From Eledone cirrhosa (taxonomy: Eukaryota): 64,000 bases of DNA. The stretch spans positions 195,486,001 to 195,550,000 of the forward strand of contig OZ024741.1 in assembly GCA_964016885.1 (NCBI GenBank), read 5' to 3'. The notes beneath the pieces were generated by a model. It was not told the origin of the DNA. It made no database searches and saw nothing but the letters and a program-made list of their open reading frames with translations. Shown in pieces: positions 11,660-60,072 of this stretch (the first letter of the stretch is position 1; every line of letters starts with the position of its first letter). Made by a program: the position numbers and the translations under genes.

Positions 11660-11726
11660 TATTTTATCTGATGAGGACGTACTGTTGAAGTTAGCTCAGT
11701 ACCTCTGAAATATGTATAATAAAATA
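11660..11726 (+). ncRNA. type I hammerhead ribozyme
   Basis: attttat CTGATGA ggacgtactg...cagtacctct GAAA tatgta TA ataaaat. Confidence 0.75.
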
Positions 11727-44900: not shown

Positions 44901-45254
44901 TATATATATATATAACGAAGGAATTGTGGTAAGGAACCAGATGGACCATAACGCACCACAGTACTCAATACTTAGGGTAGTAGAGTGGATAATAAGACTC
45001 AGTCTAGAAATAGCCGTCGAAACGGCTTGAGCTCTGCCGTCGGGATCATACTTTTTCCTATATATATAGTTGTTATATAGTAAGGTGCATTATTGGTTGT
45101 GTAAAATGGTCCAATAACTTTATGTTAGTAATATTAAGTTCTCCACGCTTTTGTATATCTCCAATTCCATTCGAGGGAACAGCTAAATGATGTAAAACGG
45201 AGTATAAGTATCAAAATGAAAATCCGAAGGCAAGGTAAAATTCCAATCATTTAA

Positions 45255-51766: not shown

Positions 51767-53642
51767 TGGCTGCCAACTCGTTTTCGAGTACGGCCACTAC
51801 TTTATATCCATGTAGGAGAACCCCTACCGATACGCTGAACGAGTGTGGCTTTTTAGTCCAGCCAGCGACTTGAAAACTCTGGTACAAACATTACACTTGT
51901 GACAATTATTAACACCTAGTGCTGGGTCCATGGTACCATGTGACCCAAGGTATCGTGTGAGATCACTACTCGACCTGCATACCCTGCCACAAACATTACA
52001 TGTCGTCGTCTGATGAACACTTATAGCTCCACAGGTGCCTGCTTCCCTGTTCTTGTGCACTCTCAGGTGACTCTTTAGACCTGCCATGCTCAGACAAACC
52101 CTATTGCAGGTCTCACATGTCAGGTCAGGCCGTCTGTCAGTGCCTTCGGGAAGGCCAACATGGATTCCTTTCCGGACATCTCTTTTTAGTGTCGCGTGTC
52201 TTCTTCTTGTTTCCTCAAATAAACTCTTGCCACTAGCCACTGCTTTCCTCCAATGCGATCGATCGCTAGCGCATGCTTCCCAGTGCTCACAAGGGATGTT
52301 ACTTTTCTTGAGCGCCCCCTTGATGCAGTCCTTAAAACGCATCTTGGGTTTGCTCGCGTTCCTTTTTCCCATTTGGAGCTCGCCATAAATAGCTGCTTCG
52401 GCATCTGCTTGTCATTTATCCTTACAAGATGGCCTGTCCAGCGCAGCTGATGTTTCAAAATCAAGGACTCGACACTATCACAGCCACTTCTGTCCAGAAC
52501 CTCGACGTCACTGACAAACATTTGCCAAGTTATGCCGAGGATCCGACGTAAGCAGTACTGGTGGAACCTCTCAAGTCGCTTCATCTGTCTACGGTAGATC
52601 ACCCATGTCTCACAAGCATAAAGAAGTGCCGCGAGCACACACGCATGATATACTTTGAGCTTTGTCTTTACCGAAATTCCGTGTTGAGACCAGAGACGCT
52701 TGTTCAGTTTTCCAAAAGCATCACTGGCTTTCTGTATCCTGTTTGATATTTCCCCATCAAGATCGCAGGACATACTCGGAGTGCTTCCAAGATATACAAA
52801 ACTGCCAACGACCCTTAGCCTTTCACCATAAACCAAGATGTTGGGCTCACAACATGGCTTCCCAGGGGCTGGTTGATACTTGGCTACTGTGTTTTTCAGG
52901 CTTATGGTATGTCCCAATACAGTACACGCATTAGAAAATGCATCCATGAGATGCTGCATATCAATCTCCGTGTGCGCTACCAGGTCACAGTCATCTGCAT
53001 AAAGCAAATCCCTGATTAGTGACAAGTGAACCTTTGACTTAGCATAGAACCTCCTGATATTAAACAGCTTTCCAGTTGATCGATAGCGAACATATATACC
53101 ATGATTGCAGTTCCCGAAGGCCTGTTCGAAGACAATGGAGAAGTACAAAGCAAAGAGCGTTGGAGCTGGAATGTCACCCTGTTTGACTCCATTCTCGACC
53201 GTCACCGGCTCAGAGAGCTTTCCACCAACATTTACCCATGCCTTCATGTCATCATGGAACAAACGCAAAATGGAAACAAACTTCTCAGGGCACCCCAGCT
53301 TCCTCAAGATATCCCATAAAGCCTTTCTGTTGACCGTGTCAAACGCCTTTGTCAGATCAACAAACACCTGGTAGAGATCCACATTCTGCTCAACACACTT
53401 TTCCTGCAGTTGTCTGGCTGTAAAGATCATGTCCACAGTGCCACGCCCAGCCCGACAGCCCGATTACGACTCTGGTAGAGCTTCATCAGCAATGTGGAGC
53501 AATAAACGGTCCAACAGAATTCTACAGAGAACTTTTCCGACAACAGACAACAGTGATATCCCACGATAGTTTCCGCAGTTATCCCTGACTCCCTTTCCCT
53601 TGTACAAAACAACCATCACAGTATCCTTCCAATCATCAGGAA
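51765..53642 (-). mobile_element. RTE/BovB-like LINE with C-terminal C2H2 fingers, frameshifted
   Basis: NYRGISLLS, DMIFTARQLQEKC, FVDLTKAFD, GVKQG, DLLYADD, YACETW; C-x2-C..H motifs in ORF 51824..52372. Confidence 0.95.
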
Positions 53643-54254
53643 CATATATATATATACACACATATATATAAAATAAATAAATAAACAAACATACACACAC
53701 TCAACCACGCGCATATACTTAAAAAGTACGTAGACATAAGCTGTCACATAAGCGTATATTTATCAACCGGCATAGACAAAATACATACACATGAAGTAAT
53801 AAGAATAAATAAATAAATGAATAAGAACAAAAAATATTCAAAGGCAAAAATAGAAAAATAAAGGATGAAAAAAATAGACAGAGGAAGCGCGTTGACAACG
53901 ATAAGAGGGGGGAGTGGGGAAAACAAATAAAAATAAACAAACACACGAGGTGTGCACTTACATAAAAATACAGATATACAAAATTTTAAAAAATATATAT
54001 ATATACATATACATACATATAAATAAGACTATACAGGCAAAAAACAAAGGCCTATAATCACCGCATACACACAACTAAAAATGTAAACACATACACACAC
54101 ACACACAACATTGAGGGCCGAATAAATTAAATTACCGATATAAAAGACACAGAAGCGAAAAGCGAAAACCAACCAAACAGTGAGTGTGTTCTGTTATTAA
54201 TTCTGGCAATATTACACAAATATGACCTTCCCCAAGTATATATATATATGGTAA

Positions 54255-55350
54255 TACAACAACGCAAAATTATAACTGTACCTGTGTCCAACCAGGAATG
54301 TGTCCGTTGAACAATCAGTGTCTTGAACGCAACATCATATACAAATGTACTATCGAATCGGGTAGCCAGAAGTGGTACTATGTGGGGTCTACAGCTACCT
54401 CCTTCAAATCTCGCCTTTATAAACATCGTTACTCGATAAAACATGAAAACCAGCGTTATATAACAACACTCGCAGACAAGGCTTGGCAGCTGCGAGAAAA
54501 TAACCAACAATTTAACCTAAAATGGGATATAATAGCATCTGCCCCTGCATATTTCAAGGACAGGAATTTTGTAAATTGTGTAACATGGAATTATTTTGTA
54601 TTATGAAATCCAAAAATATTTTATTAAATAACAGAATAGAGCGATCGTTATACTGTAACCATCGCTTGAAATCTACATTTTCATATTACAAACGCTACCA
54701 GGATTGTACGCCTGTCTCCATCTCCGTTTGATTGTCAAAATACATATTAACATTCTCTATTAGTCTTAATTCTATCAACTCTTCTATTCTTTACCATTTA
54801 ATATAAACTGCTATAGATAAAATGAGATTTCTTAATTCAATTCCCTAATGCATATACCAGCAGGCTACCAGCATTGTTGTTATACAGTAGCAGTGAAAAT
54901 CTCCCTCTTCCTTAATTGACACTTTATATCTGTATTAATACTACTACACCAAATGACCAGCCCTGTCCATTGCTCAATTGGTCAAATATAGATTAAAATA
55001 GGCACTCCCAAAAATTCTTATTTAGATAAAATAAGCCATATACTCATTGTATTCTCTTTAAAAACCTTCTATATACTTGTTTACCAGCAAATTGAATTGC
55101 CATCTGTCATATACTATCCCCTCTCTTCTTCCTTTCTTACAACTAATATAAATACTTCAATTTATCTGATTTTTTCCAATTTATCCAATATCTCTGAAGA
55201 AGTGACAACTGATTATACATTTGCTATCGAATACTTGCTAACATTATATGATTACGCAAGCAGCGATACATAGGTATTCCGTCTGTTACAGAAACATATG
55301 TCAATACCTAATAAATTCCTTTATAAAAGCACTTTCATTTTATATTTATC
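54255..55350 (+). mobile_element. Penelope-like element 3' part (Naiad/Neptune-like GIY-YIG)
   Basis: CTC..CPLNNQCLERNIIYKC..YVGSTATSFKSRLYKH..CKLC..CNHR; HHR-like motif downstream. Confidence 0.85.
55189..55306 (+). ncRNA. hammerhead-like motif with long stem II and weak stem I
   Basis: tatct CTGAAGA a gtgaca...tgttac a GAAAC atat GTC aata. Confidence 0.5.
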
Positions 55351-55400
55351 TTTTATATATATATATATGGTGATTATCTCTTTGACCATATATGGAATTG

Positions 55401-55493
55401 CCCCTTGACAAGTTCGGCTATTTAAATACTAGAACTGATTTTTCATTCAGTACAGAATTAGCCGTCGAAACGGCTTGAGCTCAGCCGTCGGGG
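55401..55493 (+). ncRNA. decayed hammerhead ribozyme (core TTGACAA)
   Basis: cccc TTGACAA gttcggcta...tagccgtc GAAAC ggc-ttgagctca-gcc GTC gggg; 3' half repeated at ~45011-45044. Confidence 0.6.
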
Positions 55494-55586
55494 TCTTACT
55501 TACTCCTATTACCCACTCTACTACCCTAAGTATTGAGTACTTTGGTGCGTTATGGTCCACCTGGTTCCTTACCACTTTTCCTTTCG

Positions 55587-55651
<65 letters not shown>

Positions 55652-55692
55652 AAGATATTAATAAATGGAAACTATATTTATAAAACCATATT

Positions 55693-55757
55693 TATTTTAT
55701 TATATATATTTCAAGGGCGACCAAGCCAATCTTGGTGCGCTTTCATCAGATAAAATA
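55693..55757 (-). ncRNA. type I hammerhead ribozyme
   Basis: tattttat CTGATGA aagcgcaccaag-attgg-cttggtcgccctt GAAA tatata TA ataaaata. Confidence 0.85.
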
Positions 55758-55877
55758 CAAAACTTGTTTTATAAATAACGACATACCCATGGAAATCAAC
55801 CTTAACGGTCGGAAATTCGCTGGATAGTTATAAACATTTATGTTTGTCGGAATTCCAACAAATTAAATACAACTTCT

Positions 55878-55953
<76 letters not shown>

Positions 55954-56238
55954 TATAAAGTAAAGCATGTCCAGAGAATTATTTGATAATATATATACAT
56001 CATTTCTTCTCCCAATTAGCATAATTAACCACACAAAAAATCAATTAGACCAGGCTTTAAGATTAAAAGGCACCTATGAAGAAACAGTAAATAAATACAT
56101 GACATCGGCGTCTTCGCGGCCAACCGCTATAGAATATTTACCCAACATTTCAACAGCACGTGGAAATTAATTAAATATACGGTCAACCATACACAATTAG
56201 GTATAAAATTAAAGTTAGAAATGCTTATATACATACCA

Positions 56239-56280
<42 letters not shown>

Positions 56281-56541
56281 GCGTCCCTTAGCGCCTTGTG
56301 CGTGAAGGAACACATATCCTATTATTACTACTCTCCTCTATTGTTGAGAGACAAATTGGGTCGTTCCGACTGCTGCTAGTGATAGTTGCGGCCGGTTTGA
56401 CCTACCTCCCTCTGCCTCTATCTTTACTTCGGCCCTTGAAAAAATTGATTCCACTTCATTCACTCTCATCTCGGGAACAGTTTTGGATAGCGCTAGTTCG
56501 TAATTTAAATTCAAGAATTTTATATTCTTCGAATGAAAAGA

Positions 56542-56624
56542 ACCTTCTGACGAGAATCTTTCTTTGCAACGAAGGCCGTATGGTCTCCGTTTATTTTTGG
56601 GATTCGAAACCGATCGGTAAAGGT
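56542..56624 (+). ncRNA. type I hammerhead ribozyme, unit 1
   Basis: acctt CTGACGA gaatctt...gggattc GAAAC cgatcg GTA aaggt. Confidence 0.92.
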
Positions 56625-57026
56625 AACTATAGTAGGTAAAGTCAATTTTTTAAAATTTATTTTGAAACTTTTTCATTATTTGCTAAACCCTGTTTATATA
56701 TGTTCTGGCTCGTTAATTTATTAACCTGCCATTGAACCACATTGGCATTTGGTTGGACAATACATGCGTCCCTTAGCGCCTTGTGCGTGAAGGAACACAT
56801 ATCCTATTATTACTACTCTCCTCTATTGTTGAGAGACAAATTGGGTCGTTCCGACTGCTGCTAGTGATAGTTGCGGCCGGTTTGACCTACCTCCCTCTGC
56901 CTCTATCTTTACTTCGGCCCTTGAAAAAATTGATTCCACTTCATTCACTCTCATCTCGGGAACAGTTTTGGATAGCGCTAGTTCGTAATTTAAATTCAAG
57001 AATTTTATATTCTTCGAATGAAAAGA

Positions 57027-57109
57027 ACCTTCTGACGAGAATCTTTCTTTGCAACGAAGGCCGTATGGTCTCCGTTTATTTTTGGGATTCGAAACCGATC
57101 GGTAAAGGT
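57027..57109 (+). ncRNA. type I hammerhead ribozyme, unit 2
   Basis: identical to unit 1. Confidence 0.92.
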
Positions 57110-57511
57110 AACTATAGTAGGTAAAGTCAATTTTTTAAAATTTATTTTGAAACTTTTTCATTATTTGCTAAACCCTGTTTATATATGTTCTGGCTCGTTA
57201 ATTTATTAACCTGCCATTGAACCACATTGGCATTTGGTTGGACAATACATGCGTCCCTTAGCGCCTTGTGCGTGAAGGAACACATATCCTATTATTACTA
57301 CTCTCCTCTATTGTTGAGAGACAAATTGGGTCGTTCCGACTGCTGCTAGTGATAGTTGCGGCCGGTTTGACCTACCTCCCTCTGCCTCTATCTTTACTTC
57401 GGCCCTTGAAAAAATTGATTCCACTTCATTCACTCTCATCTCGGGAACAGTTTTGGATAGCGCTAGTTCGTAATTTAAATTCAAGAATTTTATATTCTTC
57501 GAATGAAAAGA

Positions 57512-57594
57512 ACCTTCTGACGAGAATCTTTCTTTGCAACGAAGGCCGTATGGTCTCCGTTTATTTTTGGGATTCGAAACCGATCGGTAAAGGT
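57512..57594 (+). ncRNA. type I hammerhead ribozyme, unit 3
   Basis: identical to unit 1. Confidence 0.92.
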
Positions 57595-57661
57595 AACTAT
57601 AGTAGGTAAAGTCAATTTTTTAAAATTTATTTTGAAACTTTTTCATTATTTGCTAAACCCT

Positions 57662-57724
<63 letters not shown>

Positions 57725-57727
<3 letters not shown>

Positions 57728-59512
57728 TGGCGTAGCTAGGGTAAACGGCGCCCAGGGTAAGCATCGATGTCGTAGTTGTATAGTTCCGCAAGACTGTTGC
57801 ACCTTTGTTTAAGGACAAGGTTATCAGGAGCAGCCAAATAAAACAGATAGTTGACATCAAGAAGAAAGCCAAAACTTGAGTCGGTTACCTTAAGTCGAAT
57901 AAACCGTTCTTCCATTTCTGTTTGAAGACGATTGAGTGAACTTTGCATTGCTCTCTCTATCTCTTTTCTGGCAGTCACCTCGACGTCCTCGGTAATTTCG
58001 GTATTGGTTTGTCGTCTACCTCGCCTTCTCGGAAAATCGGCATTCCATTTCTGGCAGAGGTAGAAGCCCATTTCAAGAGACTCGTGGATTAAGGATGTTC
58101 CTTCTTCTTTAAAATAAAGTTGAAGGGCTCCTATATCAGCTGCAGCATCGTGAAAATTAATTCTTGGATCTTGAAGTCTCTTTTGAACCCGGTCAATTCG
58201 TGAGAGAATCGTGTTCCAGAATCCAATCAAGTTCAGGAATTCATAACTCAGTATCCGATTATGGAGATTACTGGCATCACTTCTACTCTCGCATGTCTCT
58301 GTTTCAACATCACTAATTTTTTCGAGAACTTGAACAATCAGCGTCAAATAATTCGCCACCGGTCTGACTGCGGTACATCTAGCACTCCACCGCGTGTCGG
58401 AAGGATATTTAACAACCACTGGAGCAACTTCTTTACGAGCTTCCCATCGCCGTGGTGAACGAGAAAAAAAGTTGTGTAACGAATCAATGCAACTGAAAAA
58501 GTTCATCATAGCAGAATCGTTTTTGGCTGCATGAAGACCAGCCAGATTAAGTGAATGGTTATCGCAATTAACGAAGTGAATCAAATTATTCTTCTCTCTC
58601 ATTCTCTCTGCTGAACCCCACTGCGGTGCCCAGCCATTGTGGCAGCATTGTTGTAGCACTGCGATCGACAGTTCTGCAGTGGTAGGTCATCTTTTTCTAG
58701 CTCTTTCACGATTGTTTCAACAAGGCTTGCGGCATCTTTTTTGATTACTTGAATGAATCCAAGGAAAGATTTCCTCACAACAACTTCATATTGAAATCAA
58801 CATCGACATATCGCACAACGTTTGACAGTTTTTCTCTGTGCGCCTGGTCAGGGGTCGAATCAATCAGCAGACCATAGTATCTTGCTTTTGGGATACGATT
58901 TAGTAAATTCTGATGAACTGTATTATAGAAGAAAACATTGAACCATCTAACCTGGAGTCAAATTGAATTCCTAATAGAAGCTATCCGATCCTATCTGGCC
59001 ATTTGGATTATGATATCTTTTCTATACGTCTTATGTACCAGTTGTAAAAGACAAACTACTCTGTTTTGTAAACCAGCTTCATAATTAAAATTATCTTGTA
59101 TTGCAATGCATTGCTAAAAATAGCGCCTGCGTGTCCACCAGTTGCACGTCCAAAACTACGTCCCTTCAGTCAGTGTGTGTGTGGGGGGGGGGGGGGGTTG
59201 TGAGGTCAAGTGAGGTATCCGCTGTTTTGCAATGTATAGCTAAAAATAGCGCCCGCATAATTGCAACCCACCCTGTTGTCAGTGTGGAGGCGGGAGGGCG
59301 TTTTTGTGAAGTCAAATCAGACATCTGCTCTGTCTAGTGCACTAGACATGGCGTGGAAGTCGGCTATCAAGAAATCACATGCTTCATTTTTGGTTTATAT
59401 TTTAAAAAATGATAAAAACGACATGGATGTAAATCGATCTAGGTCGAAATTGCGCCCCCCTAAATATGGCGCTCGTGGCATGTGCCCTGCTTGCCACACC
59501 CTAGCTACGCCA

Positions 59513-59515
<3 letters not shown>
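57725..59515 (-). mobile_element. hAT transposon (Tip100-like), internally deleted, inserted in (TA)n
   Basis: perfect 18-bp TIR CAGTGGCGTAGCTAGGGT; YYGLLIDSTPD, FVNCDNHSLNL, DTRWSAR. Confidence 0.92.
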
Positions 59516-59544
<29 letters not shown>

Positions 59545-59548
<4 letters not shown>

Positions 59549-60072
59549 CAAGTAAGTATGTTTTGAAACAGTGAGCAGGTTTGAAATTAGAAAATAGAAT
59601 AGCTTTCACCGTATTTTTTACTAAAGAAATTTTAGCCTGATAATGGGGTTTAGAACCCTCAGATAAATGGAAAAAGATGAGTATTGACGTACATGGGAGT
59701 CGAACCCACATCTTTGGTTATACAGACGACAGTACCATTACACCAACAGAGGGTTCTAAGCCCCTTTATCAGGCTAAAATTTCTTTAGTTAAAAATACGG
59801 TGAAAGCTATTCTATTTTCTAATTTCAAACCTGCTCACTGTTTCAAAACATACTTACTTGTCATTTATACTCGCTAAGAATGTAGCTTCTAATTTGAATG
59901 GAAGGAGATGGGTGATGTGTTGGTGTAATGGTAGCACAGTGGTCTGGATAACCAAAGATGTGGGTTCAACTCCCATGTACGTCAATACTCATCTTTTTCC
60001 ATTTATCTGAGGGTTCTAAACCCCATTATCAGGCTAAAATTTCTTTATTCAAAAATACGGTGAAAGCTATTC

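Follow-up and report, generated by a model that had tools for sequence, protein, structure and literature searches.

Metazoan non-LTR retrozymes have been described as tandem arrays of non-coding units of 170-400 nt with a GC content below 50%, each unit carrying a type I hammerhead ribozyme (Cervera and de la Pena, 2020; PMC7229834). The same authors proposed a cycle in which a circular RNA is reverse transcribed into tandem cDNA. Units of vertebrate non-LTR retrozymes span 51-972 bp, and 24 of 57 Xenopus retrozyme families match known elements, nearly all of them Penelope-like (Li, Clavereau and Pollet, 2026; bioRxiv 10.64898/2026.07.22.740005; hereafter Li et al., 2026). In the accessible parts of PMC7229834, of Li et al. 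(2026) and of a 2020 review, both the conversion of circle to tandem cDNA and the involvement of a Penelope helper are presented as hypotheses, and the role of the hammerhead in Penelope-like elements has been called unclear in the literature. A palindromic stem III and cleavage of dimers were treated by Cervera and de la Pena (2014). No account of fixed array ends or of inversions was found in the retrozyme literature covered by our search, outside which most subscription papers fell, and a 2026 octopus repeat annotation mentions neither ribozymes nor retrozymes.

The window analyzed here, a stretch of 64,000 nucleotides of Eledone cirrhosa contig OZ024741.1, contains a retrozyme array on its plus strand (56275-57671). 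Exact identity at a period of 485 bp extends over 1,397 bp (2.88 units) with 0 mismatches, in agreement with an earlier sequence-only reading, which had reported 2.9 identical head-to-tail copies in (TA)n. The array is truncated at its 5' end at unit position 141 and lies between (TA)n sequence on the left (56240-56277) and on the right (57665-57724). Unit positions are numbered from 56620, i.e., from the predicted cut. The two cut-to-cut monomers on the plus strand, 56620-57104 (39% GC; a predicted 485-nt circle) and 57105-57589, are identical, and the predicted circular monomer folds at -114.7 kcal/mol, versus -99.1 ± 5.7 kcal/mol for 40 shuffled sequences. As the longest stop-to-stop frame in the array comprised 115 aa and neither this frame nor a 103-aa frame of the unit matched a Pfam family at E ≤ 0.1, a protein-coding interpretation of the 485-bp unit was dropped, which bears out the earlier statement that no credible protein is encoded. 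The minus strand of the array contained no hammerhead core. A variant at unit position 71 (71C; plus-strand positions 56690, 57175, and 57660) was common to all three copies, and a 27-mer containing it had no occurrence in the genome outside this array.

Contigs from four sequencing runs (three samples, two studies) covered the retrozyme unit, none of them crossing the whole array. This observation, together with the 100% identity of the copies, would fit a triplication produced by the assembly. Such an artefact is barely conceivable, since 79 other arrays, located on many contigs, contain 0.3-12 units with unit-specific variants and differing architectures, and since the ends of the window array obey the rule for the family that is described below. 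Contigs from the sequencing runs also included one 241-nt piece of the unit, at a depth of 2, in a second organism. A search for RNA data sets containing the sequence returned none, a result that speaks neither for nor against expression.

Every unit of the window array holds a complete type I hammerhead composed of stem I (ACCTT/AAGGT), CUGACGA, stem II (GAATCTT/GGGATTC), GAAA, and a GUA triplet. The three full motifs recur with a period of 485 on the plus strand (56542-56624, 57027-57109, and 57512-57594), with predicted cuts after 56619, 57104, and 57589, as had been read from the letters alone. Stem III is a perfect palindrome of three pairs with a GAUC loop, or could pair between copies. 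Stem II consists of 7 bp, a 7x7 U-rich internal loop, and a 9-bp distal hairpin. An Rfam search of positions 54000-60000, which the sequence-only reading had proposed as a check, yielded no hammerhead match at E ≤ 1, probably due to the long stem II. The isolated motif folded no better than shuffled sequences (z = -0.89), and its active fold lay 2.1 kcal/mol above the minimum-energy fold.

Covariation was analyzed for 18 distinct aligned hammerheads from the window family (family A) and a sister family. In this alignment, whose stem III had been specified in the search pattern and whose two family A rows are shifted by one column across the distal hairpin, 88.9% of cells were paired, both sides changed in 11 of 25 pairs, and the observed paired fraction was reached by 0 of 500 shuffles in a control that ignores relatedness. 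Within family A, shared variants at paired positions were limited to two GU-to-GC changes. A 24-mer spanning the cut site had 1,206 exact genomic occurrences, versus 0 for a reversed control. The element is thus not confined to a single genomic locus, a possibility that the earlier reading had raised. The excess of cut-site 24-mers and the covarying stems together indicate that the hammerhead motif is more than a chance occurrence, and the covariation supports selection on the predicted ribozyme. The pair closing stem II was broken in 10 of the 18 aligned variants, all from sister-family subfamilies that have nevertheless spread, which counts against a strict dependence on an efficient ribozyme. 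The unbiased part of the hammerhead (1 of 19 columns) did not differ significantly in conservation from the rest of the unit (67 of 402; p = 0.33). Other hammerheads with an identical stem III were sister-family subfamilies or mutated copies, and no link to any ORF was seen for hammerheads sharing this stem.

A search of the 3.0-Gb genome returned 211 matches among the 40 scored of 2,017 candidates. Because the first 100 of the exact 24-mers fall in 46 arrays, approximately 550 arrays are estimated to exist genome-wide. Eighty arrays were examined: the window array, 39 others from the genome search, and 40 chosen by position on contig C1, the latter representing 40 of the 44 arrays there that lay outside the first sample. 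These arrays are 88-100% identical to the window unit and contain up to 12 copies (median 2.0), consistent with the young dispersed family that had been proposed. The sister family was detected in the flank of array L132 (3000-3500; G000:C1:92192500-92193700). Its units of 481-488 nt are 56% identical to the window family over their full length (score 162, versus 31 ± 16 for shuffled sequences), and its 1,825 candidates include several subfamilies that are 83-94% alike (loci L148-L167 and L220-L248).

The combination of tandem type I hammerhead units, a GC content of 39%, lack of a protein, dispersed copies, and coexisting autonomous Penelope-like elements characterizes the window element, on sequence features, as a young non-LTR retrozyme, an already known kind to which it had previously been assigned. 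As in the retrozymes of PMC7229834, as far as its accessible text describes them, the units are non-coding, each has one type I hammerhead, LTRs are absent, copies are dispersed, and Penelope-like elements coexist. In contrast to those retrozymes, the Eledone unit has a long stem II with an internal loop and a distal hairpin and measures 485 nt; the earlier view that the monomer is unusually long applies to the range of 170-400 nt, but not to that of 51-972 bp given in the accessible text of Li et al. (2026). A further difference from the retrozymes described in PMC7229834 is that insertion is strictly confined to (TA)n. Because both flanks are (TA)n, a target-site duplication, which is long in retrozymes that have one, would be masked here. 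Circles have been demonstrated for the retrozymes of PMC7229834 and are predicted for the element described here. A plant LTR retrozyme, which has a type III hammerhead in paired LTRs, was ruled out by the type I motif in tandem units.

The 80 arrays have 113 3' ends, of which 72 were located at a site S1 (around +82), 35 at a site S2 (around +191), and 6 elsewhere; 107 of the 113 adjoin TA repeats. In the window, the UA-rich site S1 (unit positions 74-82; 57663-57671, plus strand) forms the 3' junction of the array with (TA)n and has internal copies at 56693-56701 and 57178-57186. Site S2 (unit positions 183-194; 56802-56813, plus strand, with further copies at 56317-56328 and 57287-57298) is the second 3' junction of the family and is unused by the window array. 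The 5' ends of arrays were distributed uniformly round the unit (chi-square p = 0.79). Dispersed arrays thus lack the circularly permuted ends that had been expected: only their 5' ends vary, whereas 107 of the 113 3' ends lie at the two fixed sites. No stretch of the unit is more TA-like than S1, which matches the TA target over 7 nt; the real junction thus lies somewhere inside S1, and base pairing alone could explain the use of this site. A TA-like 5-nt stretch at unit positions 387-391 matches TA better than S2, yet it was never an end. Microhomology alone therefore does not explain S2, which points to enzyme-directed starts. Alignment folds of both families place S1 just before one predicted hairpin and S2 just after a second. 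The resulting predicted two-hairpin cassette between S1 and S2 (56702-56801, plus strand), whose fold in the window copy alone was ambiguous (z = -1.33), is a candidate enzyme-binding platform.

Head-to-head inversions were present in 31 of the 80 arrays (approximately 39%), with joins that mostly showed an overlap of few bases. Twenty-five of these arrays combine S1 with S2, one is S1/S1, one is S2/S2, and four have another end, so that S1/S2 pairing occurred in 25 of 27 two-site inversions (p = 3e-6 against 50%). In the sister family (39 loci), S1 and S2 occur at homologous positions and were paired in 19 of 20 inverted arrays. Short arrays that are dispersed, end at fixed 3' sites, and are often inverted do not fit an ordinary satellite or minisatellite, whose local arrays lack defined insertion ends. 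In L1 twin priming, a head-to-head 5' inversion with a microhomology join arises from arms that are non-overlapping parts of a linear RNA primed at its poly(A) tail, whereas the retrozyme arms start at fixed internal sites and each may circle the unit several times. Two fixed 3' ends and frequent inverted arrays are not described in the accessible text of PMC7229834. Seemingly chimeric junctions outside TA sequence at L126, L128, and L140 were set aside as apparent secondary insertions of other elements. At L113:2139-2212, a retrozyme arm directly abuts the final 70 bp of a different TA-targeted element, one that carries a minimal hammerhead; this junction possibly reflects a template switch or a later deletion.

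The TA tract round the array has also received Penelope-like insertions, namely a GIY-YIG remnant (54253-54582) and a pseudo-LTR (55376-55593). The former is part of a 3' remnant (54253-55360) that comprises a GIY-YIG domain and a UTR and derives from a highly abundant Penelope family of the Hydra clade. A 741-aa ORF, which terminates early compared with a 781-aa form, is common to many copies of this family. The pseudo-LTR at 55376-55593 and a further pseudo-LTR piece at 44909-45061 belong to Hydra family G, and their hammerhead core is degenerate. The Hydra-clade motifs RWK, DKT, and CxCx5C are present in Penelope-like elements of this genome, in which young intact Hydra-type families were identified: F (714 aa, copies 95-99% identical), G (784 aa, 98-100%), and J (745 aa, 97-99%). 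Autonomous Hydra elements also occur as full-length tandems, at G000:C1:437200459-437213157 and C7:78452879-78461812, with four units at a spacing of 3,531 bp and three units at 4,011 bp.

Hydra-clade elements are reported to insert in (TA)n (Craig et al., 2021; PMC8557442). According to the accessible text of that source, they too have (TA)n targets and a hammerhead, form partial tandems, and show an inverted copy truncated at its 5' end as well as a tail at a single end; unlike the retrozyme, they are autonomous and have an ORF. In each of families F and G, the hammerhead is followed downstream by two sites of junction with TA (around +40/+113 and +20/+103, respectively), and one site per arm was used in 9 of 13 inverted insertions of the autonomous element G. 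The S1-S2 spacing is approximately 109 nt in the retrozyme and approximately 73-83 nt in F and G, compared with a tail of 30-40 bp given for Penelope-like elements in the accessible text of PMC8557442. The 5' ends of short inverted G insertions cluster approximately 25-45 nt upstream of the predicted cut, versus the uniform distribution in the retrozyme.

The retrozyme thus carries a Hydra-type insertion signature, comprising a (TA)n target, 5' truncation, an inverted 5' copy, and two 3' ends past the hammerhead. No DNA similarity was found between either retrozyme family and five of the Hydra families (the neighbor at 54253-54582, F, G, H, and J), and the partner can therefore be named only to clade, by insertion signature. 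The best reading of these data is that the retrozyme behaves as a client of a Hydra-type enzyme, the link being a shared insertion signature. The suggestion of mobilization by Penelope-like enzymes gains support from the (TA)n target, two-site 3' ends, and inversion rule shared with Hydra element G. Li et al. (2026), in the accessible text, described a sequence link to pseudo-LTRs and favored local amplification, whereas only an insertion signature was found here and formation of the multimer at insertion is favored.

The lack of a sequence link to these five Hydra families would also be compatible with copying of a circle by an enzyme from outside the Hydra clade, such as a Naiad, another Penelope-like element, or a LINE. 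We consider this rather improbable, since Hydra G has the same hammerhead-S1-S2 layout and one-site-per-arm inversions. LINEs are not known to prime internally over several rounds. Insertion in (TA)n is likewise a feature of Naiads and would be in their favor, but they are without canonical hammerheads (Craig et al., 2021; PMC8557442, accessible text).

A biochemical parallel to the two fixed sites is provided by Poseidon PAc of the green anole, in which two internal RT initiation sites define the tail and both strands of AT-rich DNA are cut and extended, a dimer being predicted (PMC11167929). The start sites of PAc are not homologous to its target, in contrast to S1, which matches its TA target as noted above. 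The PAc hammerhead is dispensable in vitro (PMC11167929), whereas inheritance in the retrozyme follows hammerhead-delimited units.

Substitutions amounted to 0.10% within arrays and 5.2% between arrays. Both arms were longer than one unit in 8 inverted arrays, and rare variants were common to both arms in 8 inverted arrays, with 0 fixed in one arm only. Low divergence within arrays and rare variants common to arms support the earlier proposal that an array is copied from a single monomer. The identity within arrays would be accounted for equally well by retrotransposition of at most one unit, followed by local amplification or homogenization of the DNA by unequal crossover or gene conversion, as in satellites. 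Local amplification has been proposed by Li et al. (2026; accessible text), and L153 is a local duplication of a partial unit plus TA flank. This explanation is nevertheless considered distinctly improbable: it is at odds with inverted arrays in which both arms exceed one unit and with the rare variants common to arms; no TA occurs between units in arrays; and even arrays of the most recent origin, which share 99-100% identity among themselves, contain 2-12 units.

Array L047 (9 units) contains one unit with 460C and, as the next unit, one with 61C+98C, the variants flanking one cut site. A 45-mer with 460C had five matches genome-wide (that L047 unit and four units of L065), and a 55-mer with 61C+98C also had five (that L047 unit, three in L057, and one in L061). 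None of L057, L061, and L065 carries both 460C and 61C+98C. If L047 is the parent, the template boundary therefore lies in an 86-nt interval that contains the cut, and the data suggest that single units of L047 founded whole arrays. This lineage argument concerns one parent array (L047), and a random boundary would fit with a probability of approximately 0.18 if one daughter is informative, or approximately 0.03 if both count. The 460C variant was also found in three older-subfamily arrays, two other matches of the L047 type were cross-subfamily coincidences, and gene conversion may be an alternative source of the pattern. The spectrum of the 61 single-unit substitutions, which included 14 T>C, 11 A>T, 10 T>A, and 8 A>G changes, bore no clear signature of reverse transcriptase errors.

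Single-unit inheritance with a boundary at the cut would fit a cut but unligated linear monomer as well as it fits a circle, provided that the reverse transcriptase jumped exactly from the 5' end of this template to its own 3' end in each round. Four of 114 5' ends were located within 3 nt of the cut (p = 0.08), as this template would allow. The 1,206 junctions, in contrast, are all exact. A genome-wide search for short inserts with their start at the cut revealed no such class, only 3 insertions beginning there next to TA, and 61 of the 114 arms run across two or more cut sites. The rarity of cut-start inserts and the many arms that cross at least two cuts favor a circle, and we regard the linear monomer as very unlikely.

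Use of an uncut linear multimer as template by the same Penelope-type enzyme, with the same two sites and a hammerhead that is incidental or acts elsewhere in the cycle, is also considered unlikely. For the anole element, the one Penelope element reconstituted in vitro, hammerhead mutations left insertion unaffected and most of the substrate was RNA that had not been cut (Frangieh et al., 2024; PMC11167929), and cleavage was seen for only 1 of 9 predicted Xenopus retrozymes in the accessible text of Li et al. (2026), which speaks against a circle. Homogeneous parents would yield homogeneous daughters, the base of stem II is often broken in sister subfamilies, and a weak excess of 5' ends close to the cut (a distance of at most 10 nt in 10 of 114; post hoc p = 0.02) resembles that expected from a partly cut multimer. 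These points are opposed by the covariation of the ribozyme, by the variants that occupy one unit of L047 yet all units of L057, L061, and L065, and by 71C, which occurs in all three window copies and nowhere else, in a lineage whose parent could be absent from the assembly.

Taken together, the insertion record makes two-site target-primed rolling-circle reverse transcription of a predicted ribozyme-cut circle by a Hydra-type enzyme the probable origin of the arrays. In the first step of such a cycle, an array would be transcribed, the hammerheads would cut, and a host ligase would close a 485-nt circle, as judged from coral, mussel, and axolotl retrozymes. A borrowed RT/GIY-YIG protein would then bind near the two-hairpin cassette and cut (TA)n, which is the observed target. 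The 3' end of the target would prime within the RNA at S1 or, less often, at S2, in keeping with the fixed ends, and synthesis would cross the cut junction for up to approximately 10 rounds before stopping at random, yielding the arrays observed. In approximately 39% of insertions, the observed head-to-head pattern would result if the second target strand primed at the other site and the two cDNAs were joined by microhomology. The window array is most likely a simple S1-primed product of 2.88 rounds.

A more specific version, which we put forward tentatively and consider possible but doubtful, assumes that a Penelope dimer bound to the cassette of one cut circle primes both target strands at the flanking sites, that both of its subunits roll round that circle, and that autonomous Hydra elements are copied likewise. 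If true, a single mechanism would account for pseudo-LTRs and partial tandems, for the tail on one side and the inverted 5' copy, and for what the hammerhead is there to do.

The new part of this analysis is the insertion record, non-LTR retrozymes as a kind having been described before. The youth of the family lets insertion events be read from the genome. It offers exact predicted priming sites, a site-per-strand rule, one traced single-unit founding with a boundary spanning the ribozyme cut, and three young intact candidate enzymes, by which the proposed model of integration becomes directly testable in vitro. Some minisatellites would also have their origin explained if an enzyme inserts small circular RNAs into microsatellites as tandem copies.

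Several other elements were observed in the window. Two more high-copy fragments (55650-55881 and 55958-56239) are nested in the same TA tract as the array; on the minus strand, the first of these has a hammerhead (core at 55749) whose stem III is a TA repeat and which resembles that of family J. Between TA runs, positions 57725-59515 are occupied by a DNA transposon with terminal inverted repeats, which we take to be hAT-like. Its 316-aa transposase-like frame (57736-58686, minus strand) showed no significant Pfam match. A generic motif scan revealed more hammerheads at 11668, 44735, 45324, and 45469, the last two forming an inverted pair. Elsewhere in the genome, a tandem repeat of approximately 600 bp adjoins a TA run upstream of the family H ORF (L199). 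A LINE-type reverse transcriptase frame (52186-53463, minus strand; PF00078, E = 9e-15) occurs in the window together with a zinc-finger-like frame (51824-52411). Finally, a tRNA-like match (59914-59984; 49.7 bits) in repeat-rich DNA is possibly the head of a SINE.
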